Source: Escherichia coli (GTDB lineage: Bacteria; Pseudomonadota; Gammaproteobacteria; Enterobacterales; Enterobacteriaceae). Taken from it: a DNA stretch of 64,000 nt. Position 1 is the first letter of the stretch; every line of letters starts with the position of its first letter. The position numbers and the translations under genes are program-made. Positions 31,035 through 35,752 of the stretch are shown here, in pieces. The stretch is taken from assembly GCF_016903815.1 (NCBI RefSeq), contig NZ_CP069973.1; one strand, 5' to 3'. The notes under the pieces were generated by a model. That model did no database searches and was not told the DNA's origin. It worked only from the letters and a program-made list of their open reading frames with translations.

Positions 31035-34000
31035 TTACTCAACAGGTTGCGGACGCGCAGGAGCGGCAGAGGCATGATGCGTTGCCGTATGACCACCTGC
31101 AGCACCTTTACCTTCGAAGGCAAAAGTAGGGCGCTGCCAGTCACTGTGACGCGGTGCCTCCGGAACATATTCCGGTGCCGGAGCGCGCGTCATTGGCGCG
31201 GTAGCGTGGTTATGCTCAACGGTGACCTCAGGTTTAACCGCGGCTACCGTTTCAACTTCTGCTGCGACTTCGGCGACGACTGGCGCGGCAGGTTGAGCAA
31301 CAACTTCAGGTTCAGCAACCACAACCTCAGCAGTTTCGGCAACTTCTTCAATATCAGCCGTCTCTTCCTGCGGTTCAACCACCGGTTCTGCGTGTTCTGC
31401 AACTTCCTGGGCTATGGCAACATCAGACTCGGTAATCACCTGCGGCTGTTCAGTTACCGCGGCGGCAATCACTTCAGGATGCGTCGTTTCAACCACTTCC
31501 GGTTGCGGTTCGGCAACCTGAACGGGGGCTTCTACAACTTCAGCCACTTCTTCAACAACCGGTGCGCTAACAACAGGTTCGACAGCGGCGGCGACAGGGA
31601 CCTCAGTCACCATCGGCTGCACTTGTACTTCTTCCTGTTCGCGCTGCTCTTCAACCTGTACATCTTGCGGACGTACAATTGGATAGCGGATCCAGACTTT
31701 GCCAGAGGCCAGTTCCGGAGATGCGCACGCTACGGTCAACGGCATTGGCGATTGGGTTGGATAACGCTCGTCACGATAGCGACGACGACGCTGACCACTC
31801 ACGCGCAGGTGACGAGGCGAGCGGCGAGAACGACGCGGCATGCCACCGTTGTCACGGTTATCGGCATTGTTCTCTTCTTGCTGTTCTGGTGCAGCTTGCG
31901 CTACGACTGGCAGCGGGACTTTCACCAGTTCTGTGCGTGGAGCTGGCGCTTCCTGAACAATTGGTTCGGCAGCGACAGTTTCTTCAACCACCGGTGCGAC
32001 TACCGCTTCTTCGGCTACGCTTTGCTCGTAACGCACTTTCTGATTGAGCTGACGCTGTTTACGACGCGGCTGAACCGGACGTACACGTTCTTCCTGTTCG
32101 GTTTCCTGAACAGATTGCTCTTCAACATTCAGCGCCTTCGCTTCTTGTTGCGCCTGACGTTTATCATCGTTACGGCGGCGGCTACGTTCACGACGCGGCG
32201 CTTGCTGCTCGTCGGTGGTACGTGCTTTTTCCGTTACCTCAGCCTGCTGACGGCTCTCACGCGTCTCGGCAGTCTGCTGCTGTGCCTGGCGACGATTACG
32301 ACGGTTTTCTTCGCGATTATCGCTGCCTTCAGTACGTTCACTACGGGTGTCGCGGCGCTCATTACGGTCACGGCGGTTGTTCTGACGAGGCTTGCGACGA
32401 TCCTGTTGACGTTCCGGTTTCGCTTCTGCTTTCGGTGCTGGTTGCTCGGCCGGTTTGGTTTCTTCACCACCGCTGAATAGCGCTTTCAGTGCGCCGAAGA
32501 AGCGGCTCAACAACCCTGGTTGTGCAGGAGATGCTGGTGTTGCCGTTGCAGCTTTAGGTGCTGGGGCTACAACAGGGGCGGCAGGTTCAGCTGGGGTTGG
32601 AGCTGGCGGCACATCCGGCATGGCAAAGGTTGCCAGCGCAGGTTGTTCAGGACGCTTACGTTCAGCGAACTCTTCTTCAGACGGCAGCGCCATCGCTTCT
32701 TCATGCAGCTTCGGCAGCATGTAGCTTAAGGTTGGAGTTTCTTCCCCTTTACGCACGCGCAGCACATGGTAGTGCGGGGTTTCCATCTGATCGTTTGGCA
32801 CAATCACACAGCGCACGCCGTCCTGACGAGTTTCAATCGCATTCACTGCAGAACGTTTTTCATTCAGCAGGTAAGACGCGATTGGCACAGGAACAATGGC
32901 GTGAACTTCCTGAGTGTTCTCTTTCAGCGCTTCTTCTTCGATCAGACGCAGAATAGAGAGCGACAACGATTCGTTGTCACGCACGGTACCGGTACCGGAG
33001 CAGCGCGGGCAGACGTGATGGCTGGATTCACCCAGTGATGGGCTCAGACGCTGACGGGACATTTCCAGCAGGCCAAAGCGAGAAATATGGCTGATTTGAA
33101 TACGCGCCCGGTCCTGACGCACCGCTTCACGCAGACGGTTTTCTACCGCACGCTGGTGGCGTACTGGCGTCATGTCGATGAAGTCGATAACAATCAGGCC
33201 GCCGAGGTCACGCAGGCGCAGCTGACGAGCAATCTCATCGGCAGCTTCGAGGTTGGTGTTAAACGCGGTTTCTTCGATATCGCCGCCGCGGGTCGCGCGT
33301 GCGGAGTTGATGTCGATGGCGGTTAACGCTTCGGTGCTGTCGATAACAATGGAACCACCGGATGGCAGACGAACTTCACGCTGGAAGGCGGACTCAATCT
33401 GTGACTCGATCTGGTAGTGGCTGAACAGCGGGATCTCGCCGGTGTACAGTTTGATTTTGCTGCTGAAATCCGGGCGACCTAATGCAGCGATATGCTGGCG
33501 TGCCAGTTCGAGCACTTTCGGGTTATCGATAAGGATTTCGCCGATGTCCTGACGTAAGTAATCGCGGAATGCGCGAACGATTACGTTGCTCTCCTGATGA
33601 ATCAGGAACGGAGCTGGGCGGCTTTCAGCGGCTTTTTTGATGGCTTCCCAGTGTTTCAGACGGAAGCTTAAATCCCATTGCAGCGCCTCAGCAGATTTGC
33701 CGACGCCAGCGGTGCGCACGATAAGCCCCATGCCTTCCGGCAGTTCAAGGCTTGCCAGTGCTTCTTTTAATTCGGTACGGTCGTCGCCTTCGATACGACG
33801 AGAAATGCCACCCGCGCGCGGGTTGTTCGGCATCAGAACCAGATAGCTACCCGCCAGACTGATAAAGGTGGTTAATGCCGCGCCTTTGTTGCCGCGCTCT
33901 TCTTTATCGATCTGAACAATGACTTCCTGACCTTCACGCAACACATCTTTAATGTTGGGACGACCATGAGCACTGTAGTTAGCAGGGAAATATTCGCGGG

Positions 34001-34220
34001 CAATTTCTTTTAGTGGGAGGAAACCGTGACGTTCAGCGCCGTAATCAACAAAAGCAGCTTCCAGACTCGGTTCAATGCGGGTGATTTTACCTTTGTAGAT
34101 GTTTGCCTTTTTCTGCTCGTGCCCTGGACTTTCGATATCCAGGTCATACAGACGCTGCCCATCTACAAGGGCAACGCGCAACTCTTCCTGCTGAGTTGCG
34201 TTGATTAACATTCTTTTCAT
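31035..34220 (-). CDS. rne: Ribonuclease E
   Basis: 1061-aa protein with S1/catalytic N-terminal half and an Arg/Glu/Pro-rich low-complexity C-terminal scaffold. Confidence 0.97.
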
Positions 34221-34581
34221 CGTAACTTACTCATTATTCTTACATTGACGACTAAGCTGCGGGCAAAGTAACGCCTTTCCGGGTGTGAACCGATGGCCTC
34301 GTGTCTAGTCGCGTCGCCAACCTCACGGTTATCGTCAGCTCAAAGAGGCGCAGAGTGTCGGTTGCCCGTTTTTCATGCGGAAAAACAGCGCAATTATCAA
34401 AGAAACAGACTGGGTATTACTCTCCAGAAATATTTCCATCTACCGGTAAGGACTGCAACCCGCAGCCCGCTAACTGCCTGAAAGATCAATACGTCTTACG
34501 CCATTGCTGCGTGGATGATCGGTCGGGCAAAATGGGTTATTCCGTAAAATTTCTTGTTTTAACAAGGATGGACACGGAAAC
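34221..34581 (-). promoter_or_regulatory. rne 5' untranslated leader (autoregulatory)
   Basis: Long untranslated region upstream of the rne ATG; its extent (about 360 nt) is taken from established E. coli knowledge, not measured here. Confidence 0.55.
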
Positions 34582-34792
34582 GGCCTCATTATTCCACTGC
34601 AAGCCTTGTTATAGCAAGATGACTTTTACCATTTATCACCCGCTTACTCACAGTTTTTTCACTTCTTGCTGGTGATTGGTTTAATAACCATCAATAAAGT
34701 GATCACGTAGTGAAGTAATAAGGTGCAAAACTAAATATAAGCATAGAAAAATGAGTGGCGCGAATCCTGTTGACTAATTAGAATCGCCCACC

Positions 34793-35752
34793 ATGAAAAC
34801 AGAGACTCCATCCGTAAAAATTGTTGCTATCACCGCTGACGAAGCGGGGCAACGTATCGATAACTTTTTGCGTACCCAATTGAAAGGCGTACCAAAAAGT
34901 ATGATTTACCGTATTTTGCGTAAAGGCGAAGTGCGGGTGAACAAAAAACGTATTAAGCCTGAATATAAACTCGAAGCGGGTGATGAGGTGCGTATCCCAC
35001 CGGTTCGCGTTGCTGAACGGGAAGAAGAGGCGGTTTCGCCACATCTGCAAAAGGTGGCGGCGCTGGCGGACGTCATCTTATATGAAGATGACCATATCCT
35101 GGTGCTGAATAAACCTTCCGGTACGGCGGTACATGGCGGTAGTGGTTTAAGCTTCGGCGTTATCGAAGGTTTGCGGGCGTTGCGCCCGGAAGCGCGGTTC
35201 CTTGAACTGGTTCATCGTCTCGACCGGGACACTTCAGGTGTGTTGCTGGTAGCGAAAAAACGCTCGGCGTTGCGTTCTCTGCATGAGCAATTACGTGAAA
35301 AAGGGATGCAAAAAGATTACCTGGCGCTGGTGCGCGGTCAGTGGCAGTCGCATGTGAAGAGCGTTCAAGCGCCGTTATTGAAAAATATTCTGCAAAGCGG
35401 CGAACGTATCGTGCGTGTGAGTCAGGAAGGCAAACCGTCGGAAACACGCTTTAAAGTGGAAGAACGCTATGCTTTTGCCACCCTGGTGCGTTGTAGCCCG
35501 GTAACAGGGCGTACTCATCAGATCCGTGTTCATACACAGTATGCGGGTCATCCGATTGCCTTTGACGATCGCTACGGTGACCGTGAATTTGACAGACAGC
35601 TCACTGAAGCAGGCACGGGATTAAATCGCCTGTTCCTGCACGCTGCAGCGTTGAAGTTTACTCATCCGGGGACCGGTGAGGTGATGCGTATCGAAGCGCC
35701 GATGGATGAAGGTTTGAAGCGTTGTTTGCAAAAGCTGCGTAACGCGCGCTAA
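34793..35752 (+). CDS. rluC: 23S rRNA pseudouridine(955/2504/2580) synthase RluC
   Basis: 319-aa protein with S4 domain and RluA-family catalytic core (HRLDRDTSG). Confidence 0.95.
   Translation: MKTETPSVKIVAITADEAGQRIDNFLRTQLKGVPKSMIYRILRKGEVRVNKKRIKPEYKLEAGDEVRIPPVRVAEREEEAVSPHLQKVAALADVILYEDDHILVLNKPSGTAVHGGSGLSFGVIEGLRALRPEARFLELVHRLDRDTSGVLLVAKKRSALRSLHEQLREKGMQKDYLALVRGQWQSHVKSVQAPLLKNILQSGERIVRVSQEGKPSETRFKVEERYAFATLVRCSPVTGRTHQIRVHTQYAGHPIAFDDRYGDREFDRQLTEAGTGLNRLFLHAAALKFTHPGTGEVMRIEAPMDEGLKRCLQKLRNAR

Follow-up and report, generated by a model that had tools for sequence, protein, structure and literature searches.

The yceQ frame opposite the rne leader of Escherichia coli is very probably an accidental open frame in a dense regulatory spacer

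Feedback of RNase E on the stability of rne mRNA was reportedly described by Jain and Belasco in 1995, and the stem-loop hp2 of the rne leader is said to be the RNase E sensor of this feedback loop, as put forward by Diwa et al. in 2000 and Schuck et al. in 2009. The 5' UTR of rne has been described as 361 nt long, and RNase E-dependent feedback on rne mRNA stability via hp2 is cited in PMC10989929. E. coli K-12 is the type example both of the structured leader, Rfam family rne5 (RF00040), and of the promoter p1 that precedes it. On the opposite strand, K-12 carries an annotated gene named yceQ (b1085; UniProt YCEQ_ECOLI), which is labelled "DUF2655 domain-containing protein". The closest parallels to yceQ are psrO at pnp and sroG at ribB, for which a CRISPRi screen has shown a similar strand- or orientation-specific pseudo-essentiality that arises from the promoter or leader of the neighbour. 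What sets yceQ apart from these two is that it overlaps a structured autoregulatory leader of 361 nt and that the artefact takes the form of a protein ORF, not an sRNA.

Published work has already led to the conclusion that yceQ is not a gene. Price et al. found YceQ ribosome-profiling reads to be absent in three conditions and concluded that no protein is encoded; they also noted disrupted yceQ alleles in some strains, and transposon insertions in yceQ only in the orientation able to drive rne (10.1101/038851, 2016). Ribosome profiling had been named in the first-pass annotation of this DNA as a way of checking the frame, and these published data supply the answer. The same orientation bias of insertions at yceQ has been seen by TraDIS, and the "essentiality" of yceQ in the Keio and PEC collections has been ascribed to loss of the rne promoter (Goodall et al. 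2018). CRISPRi experiments have shown that the deleterious dCas9 guides are only those oriented to block rne transcription (Rousset et al. 2018). Replacing TCG by AGC and TCA by AGT in yceQ proved non-viable during the construction of Syn61 (PMC7614783), and five yceQ positions needed correction.

The window analysed here is a stretch of 64,000 nt of E. coli DNA, to which all coordinates refer unless K-12 is named. The rne gene (RNase E, 1061 aa) lies at 31035..34220 on the minus strand and rluC (23S rRNA pseudouridine synthase) at 34793..35752 on the plus strand, as given by the ORF list and by the RefSeq annotation of identical E. coli DNA. The spacer between them, 34221..34792, is 572 bp long and contains a plus-strand ORF of 124 codons with a GTG start at 34301..34675, which we judge not to be a gene; the ORF list bears out all of these coordinates as first given. 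The spacer is 100% identical to that of K-12 MG1655 (NC_000913.3), and a K-12 position is converted to the window by subtracting 1,110,147. An 801-nt stretch around the locus finds a match of 95-100% identity in 5425 of 5426 complete E. coli genomes. The K-12 gene yceQ (1144502..1144822) is equivalent to 34355..34675 of the window, is read in the same frame from an in-frame GTG and encodes 106 aa. The equivalence with yceQ that the first-pass annotation had suggested is exact over these last 106 codons, whereas the 124-aa ORF begins at the upstream in-frame GTG at 34301. The 124-aa form has also been deposited for O157, O111 and Shigella. The product is indeed rich in Cys (6.5%), Ser (12.1%) and Thr (8.9%). 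The ORF had further been placed wholly within the rne leader. It does lie wholly in the spacer, but only 34301..34581 (281 of its 375 nt) falls inside the 361-nt p1 leader. Its last 94 nt (34582..34675) are upstream of the p1 start and hold the p1 promoter, a double DnaA box and upstream sequence.

On the minus strand, the strand of rne, a cmscan search places the rne5 element at 34245..34581 with 260.1 bits (curated gathering score 180 bits; E 4.6e-82), covering the model in full (positions 1-333 of 333). Between the match and the rne ATG (34220) lie 24 nt, and model position 1 coincides with the p1 transcription start at 34581, so that the 5' UTR is 361 nt long. In sequence over the whole spacer, position, strand and UTR length, no difference from rne5 and p1 of K-12, another E. 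coli strain, is detectable. When the Rfam structure is mapped onto the window, 81 of the 84 model pairs are canonical. At least 120 Enterobacterales loci were gathered with a 20-mer from the core of hp2, and 110 complete rne-rluC spacers were extracted from them; Salmonella is absent among the matches listed, and Citrobacter, Klebsiella, Enterobacter and others were used instead. In 37 sequences from the matches listed, dereplicated below 93% identity, 89.0% of the cells at paired positions are paired, as against 32-44% when the partners are slid, and compensatory changes occur in 39 pairs, as against 23.4 +/- 2.5 in shuffles, none of 500 of which reaches as high a number. With all 108 distinct sequences among the matches listed, 86.3% of the cells are paired (32-44% when slid) and 50 pairs show compensatory changes. 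Nine of the ten other genera tested score above the rne5 threshold. The earlier claim of a long structured rne 5' UTR in this spacer is thus supported by the rne5 score and by covariation alike.

The stem-loop hp2, the RNase E sensor of the literature, comprises leader nt 52-108 (34474..34530, minus strand). It corresponds to helices 3-6 of the covariation analysis, which carry compensatory pairs, for example one with AU in 12, CG in 12 and UA in 5 sequences (matches listed). Its core, GCAGCAAUGGCGUAAGACGU, is exact in at least 120 Enterobacterales genomes, an invariance that is circular because this 20-mer was the bait for collecting the loci and is therefore not counted as evidence. The final 24 nt of the 5' UTR, the translation-initiation region of rne (34221..34244, minus strand), form the best-conserved segment of the spacer, with a mean identity to the window of 0.91 in 109 Enterobacterales spacers among the matches listed.

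Promoter p1 of rne spans 34588..34617 on the minus strand. Its -35 hexamer TTGCTA (34617-34612) is separated by an 18-nt spacer from an extended -10 element, TGgAATAAT, which ends at 34588, and transcription starts 7 nt downstream at 34581. The two hexamers match the sigma-70 scan at 9 of 12 positions, a level at which 1.3 sites are expected by chance in the region, so that the argument for p1 is carried by its position and by its conservation. In the Enterobacterales among the matches listed, both hexamers and the bases that flank them, including those adjoining the -35 on its upstream side, show a conservation of 0.9-1.0.

A double DnaA box, TTATCACCC-gc-TTACTCACA (34633..34652, plus strand), lies within the 3' part of the ORF, a short way upstream of the p1 -35. 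DnaA ChIP-seq has been reported to give a peak with such a double box at K-12 position 1144772, which is 34625 in the window (PMC11317965). In the profile of the matches listed, the double box is only moderately conserved across Enterobacterales genera, and DnaA control of rne may therefore be restricted to certain lineages. Farther upstream, between the end of the ORF and rluC (34676..34745, minus strand), lies the region of the rne promoters p2 and p3. According to Ow et al. in 2002, their starts are reportedly about 109 and 145 nt upstream of p1, which we take to be near 34690 and 34726 in the window. A -10-like hexamer, TATATT, is found on the minus strand at 34739-34734, 7 nt upstream of 34726, and fits a start near that position. 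The existence of several rne promoters is stated in the literature.

The far end of the spacer belongs to rluC. This gene is among the known leaderless genes of E. coli, the criterion being a Rend-seq 5' UTR no longer than 5 nt (PMC8794815), and no Shine-Dalgarno sequence is found upstream of its ATG. The hexamer TAGAAT (34779-34784) lies directly before this ATG and is strongly conserved in the profile of the matches listed. Because rluC is leaderless and TAGAAT is conserved, this hexamer is probably the rluC -10, from which transcription would begin at the start codon itself or at most 5 nt from it. Conservation and literature together thus outline an rluC promoter at 34747..34792 on the plus strand, with an A-tract (34747-34751) and a block at 34755-34761 as the other putative elements. 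The promoter scan does not report it, because its -35 is poor. A conserved block is seen outside the leader at 34738-34761 (profile of the matches listed). The A-tract and the nearly invariant GTGGCGC at 34755-34761 sit where a -35 or UP element of rluC is expected. The divergent rne and rluC promoters proposed for this spacer are hence both identified, p1 by the scan and conservation, and that of rluC by its leaderless listing and the conserved TAGAAT.

A protein-coding reading of the plus strand has to be weighed against this minus-strand architecture. The frame could be a real and young de novo protein gene, specific to Escherichia, antisense to the rne leader and expressed only in special conditions. 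Such a gene would agree with a frame that stays open in E. albertii and in virtually all E. coli, and with a length in the top 1% of spacer shuffles: of 5000 dinucleotide-preserving shuffles of the 572-nt spacer, 53 contain an ORF of at least 124 aa and 194 contain one of at least 106 aa. In the whole 64-kb window, 91 ORFs reach 124 aa or more. With about 1% of shuffles and 91 such ORFs in the window, length alone says little; the ORF is somewhat long for one spacer and unremarkable at the scale of a genome.

Comparison with related genera speaks against the de novo gene. Among the 110 spacers from the matches listed, the frame is of full length only in Escherichia (K-12, E. albertii), and in two divergent Escherichia lineages (loci L106 and L044) its stop is lost and it extends to 127 aa. 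Citrobacter has a premature stop at codon 82-88. Every other genus has the frame broken by 1-nt indels and by 1-11 in-frame stops, so that the reading frame is not preserved in related genera among these 110 spacers. DNA identity over the yceQ segment is nevertheless 75-90% within Enterobacteriaceae despite the broken frames, and 1-base indels inside such well-conserved sequence are what non-coding constraint would leave as its signature.

The pattern of substitutions, for which the window was compared with indel-free Citrobacter sequences, is of the same kind. In the yceQ frame, substitutions at the three codon positions number [13,7,12], [15,10,14] and [15,7,12], with no third-position excess. 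The dN/dS of this frame is 0.71-0.89, indistinguishable from the other two frames (0.46-1.86), and its dS is 0.12-0.15. In the same genomes, the first 200 codons of rne give [5,1,52], a dN/dS of about 0.011 and a dS of 0.57-0.59, and those of rluC give [7,1,87], a dN/dS of 0.006-0.012 and a dS of 1.07-1.31; for the two flanking genes together, dN/dS ranges from 0.006 to 0.03. Neither the codon positions nor dN/dS against Citrobacter thus show purifying selection on YceQ at the amino-acid level. The comparison of synonymous with non-synonymous changes that the first-pass annotation had proposed accordingly comes out on the non-coding side. At its "silent" sites, yceQ is 4-10 times more constrained than the neighbouring genes are at theirs, as is expected if the nucleotides themselves are selected as RNA helices and promoter. 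Within Escherichia, there are 4-9 substitutions over 318 nt, too few for a reliable dN/dS.

The de novo gene is favoured by the persistence of the yceQ annotation in K-12 and UniProt, and by an SD-like AAGAGG with a 6-nt spacer before the GTG at 34355. This AAGAGG is probably simply the complement of CCUCUU in a helix of the leader. The scan detects no plus-strand promoter-like site upstream of the ORF. Because rluC is transcribed from its own start codon, transcripts from the rluC promoter leave the yceQ frame untouched and no read-through from a shared promoter is available to it. PGAP has dropped the gene: in 40 evenly sampled E. coli genomes it annotates nothing at the ORF, which is 100% identical in 34 of them. 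Scans of the ORF against Pfam-A and NCBIfam give no family even at E <= 1. The 106-aa product is an exact member of a database cluster named YCEQ_ECOLI / DUF2655. Database copies of the product come from Escherichia and Shigella only, and their lengths vary from 69 to 124 aa.

Natural strains also interrupt the frame. A split match over the region is found in 11 of 5425 genomes. Strain Z22-2 has an IS1 inside the ORF with a 9-bp target duplication (34618-34626), and E. coli O121 201805972 has an ISEc11 inside it at about 34656-34658; neither insertion disrupts p1 or the leader. They adjoin the p1 -35 and part p1 from the DnaA boxes and from p2/p3. These two strains are natural tests of how much the upstream rne elements matter.

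Length variants, IS insertions, the missing codon-position signature and the absent ribosome-profiling reads together make a young protein gene highly improbable. There is likewise very little chance that the frame 34355..34675 is translated, be it very weakly or in special conditions only. If it were, the same bases would encode a protein on one strand and an RNA structure on the other, in a de novo birth restricted to Escherichia.

The reading that we hold with great confidence is that the spacer is a dense regulatory region and that the plus-strand ORF, yceQ, is an accidental stop-free frame and not a protein gene. A conserved, covarying RNA and a promoter are present on the minus strand, and a coding signature is absent on the plus strand. 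The first-pass annotation had called the ORF a by-product of the leader sequence, and this description is sustained by a frame that is unconserved beyond Escherichia, evolves without coding constraint and is interrupted by IS elements in isolates. In the arrangement proposed here, p1 (34617-34588, minus strand) would start transcription at 34581 and produce the 361-nt leader, which would adopt the conserved rne5 fold. Following established work, an excess of RNase E activity would then, through binding of the enzyme to hp2, make rne mRNA decay faster. The double DnaA box is located upstream of p1, as are the weaker promoters of rne, with the leaderless rluC promoter at the far end. The yceQ frame would be "frozen" in Escherichia by the near-invariance of the underlying regulatory DNA: it stays open because selection on RNA structure and promoter, not on a protein, keeps the DNA almost unchanged. 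This also offers an explanation for the openness of the frame on which the de novo gene relies.

The same arrangement explains the phenotypes attributed to yceQ. It appears essential in deletion collections because its deletion removes the rne promoter and leader, and its synonymous recoding is not tolerated because the changes damage them. The 106-aa frame contains exactly five TCG or TCA codons, at 34358, 34373, 34397, 34523 and 34586, which presumably correspond to the published Syn61 positions. Those at 34358, 34373 and 34523 lie in rne5 helices, the last in the lower stem of hp2; that at 34397 falls in a part of the leader that is unpaired, and that at 34586 includes the base with which the p1 -10 hexamer ends.

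Transcription of the plus strand without translation is another possibility. A non-coding antisense RNA could pair with the rne leader and modulate rne in the manner of an excludon, and the ORF would then be incidental. The pair rne-yceQ is among 16 divergent "excludons" called by ExcludonFinder in E. coli RNA-seq, which could mean some plus-strand RNA, but this call hinges on yceQ being annotated and on thresholds of relative coverage. A genomic-SELEX site of RpoS has been reported at K-12 position 1144848, which is 34701 in the window; however, this site is downstream of the ORF and near rne p2/p3 and the rluC promoter. Upstream of 34301, the scan finds no plus-strand promoter-like site from which such an RNA could start. 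Minus-strand helices with compensatory changes explain all of the conservation in 34245-34581, and the strand asymmetry of CRISPRi suggests that the essential activity is transcription of rne. An antisense RNA of this kind is therefore very unlikely.

That the YceQ protein is itself essential, as listed by Keio and PEC according to Goodall et al. (2018), has a practically negligible probability, being refuted by the orientation bias of transposon insertions and contradicted by the natural IS insertions and by the loss or disruption of the ORF in all other genera among the matches listed.

The accidental status of the frame is a matter of annotation hygiene, and no open biological question is advanced by it. 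The name yceQ is still present in the K-12 reference, in UniProt and in lists of essential genes. It has misled a knockout collection, in which it appeared falsely essential, and the design of a recoded genome, in which silent substitutions made in a non-gene disrupted the control region of rne, an essential gene. The comparative tests described here, which draw on sequence only, independently confirm that non-coding is the right status for the ORF. They also confirm that the rne leader, the p1 promoter and the promoter of leaderless rluC have to be respected whenever this spacer is engineered.

Across Enterobacterales, the length of the rne-rluC spacer is nearly constant from Escherichia to Photorhabdus and Yersinia (about 570 nt, mostly 552-600 nt, MITE insertions aside; 110 spacers from the matches listed), and it remains constant while identity falls to about 50% in the same set. 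In several genera, imperfect palindromes of about 108-138 nt, tentatively ERIC-like MITEs, are inserted in the rne 5' UTR or in the upstream promoter region. They are found after the equivalent of window position 34439 in Klebsiella oxytoca (locus L077), in two Citrobacter loci (L047 and L061) and in loci L058, L033 and L046; after 34547 in Erwinia/Winslowiella (L045, L088 and L090); and after 34741 in C. amalonaticus (L119). Insertions of about 125 nt match the ERIC primer sequences at 16-17 of 22 positions against a background of 12-13, a moderate agreement that leaves the term "ERIC-like" tentative. The insertions fold as long hairpins, with z of -3.4 to -6.5 in four of five. Those in the leader sit in unpaired junctions of rne5, at leader nt of about 143 and 35, and the leaders that bear them keep a full-length rne5 match of 202-229 bits.
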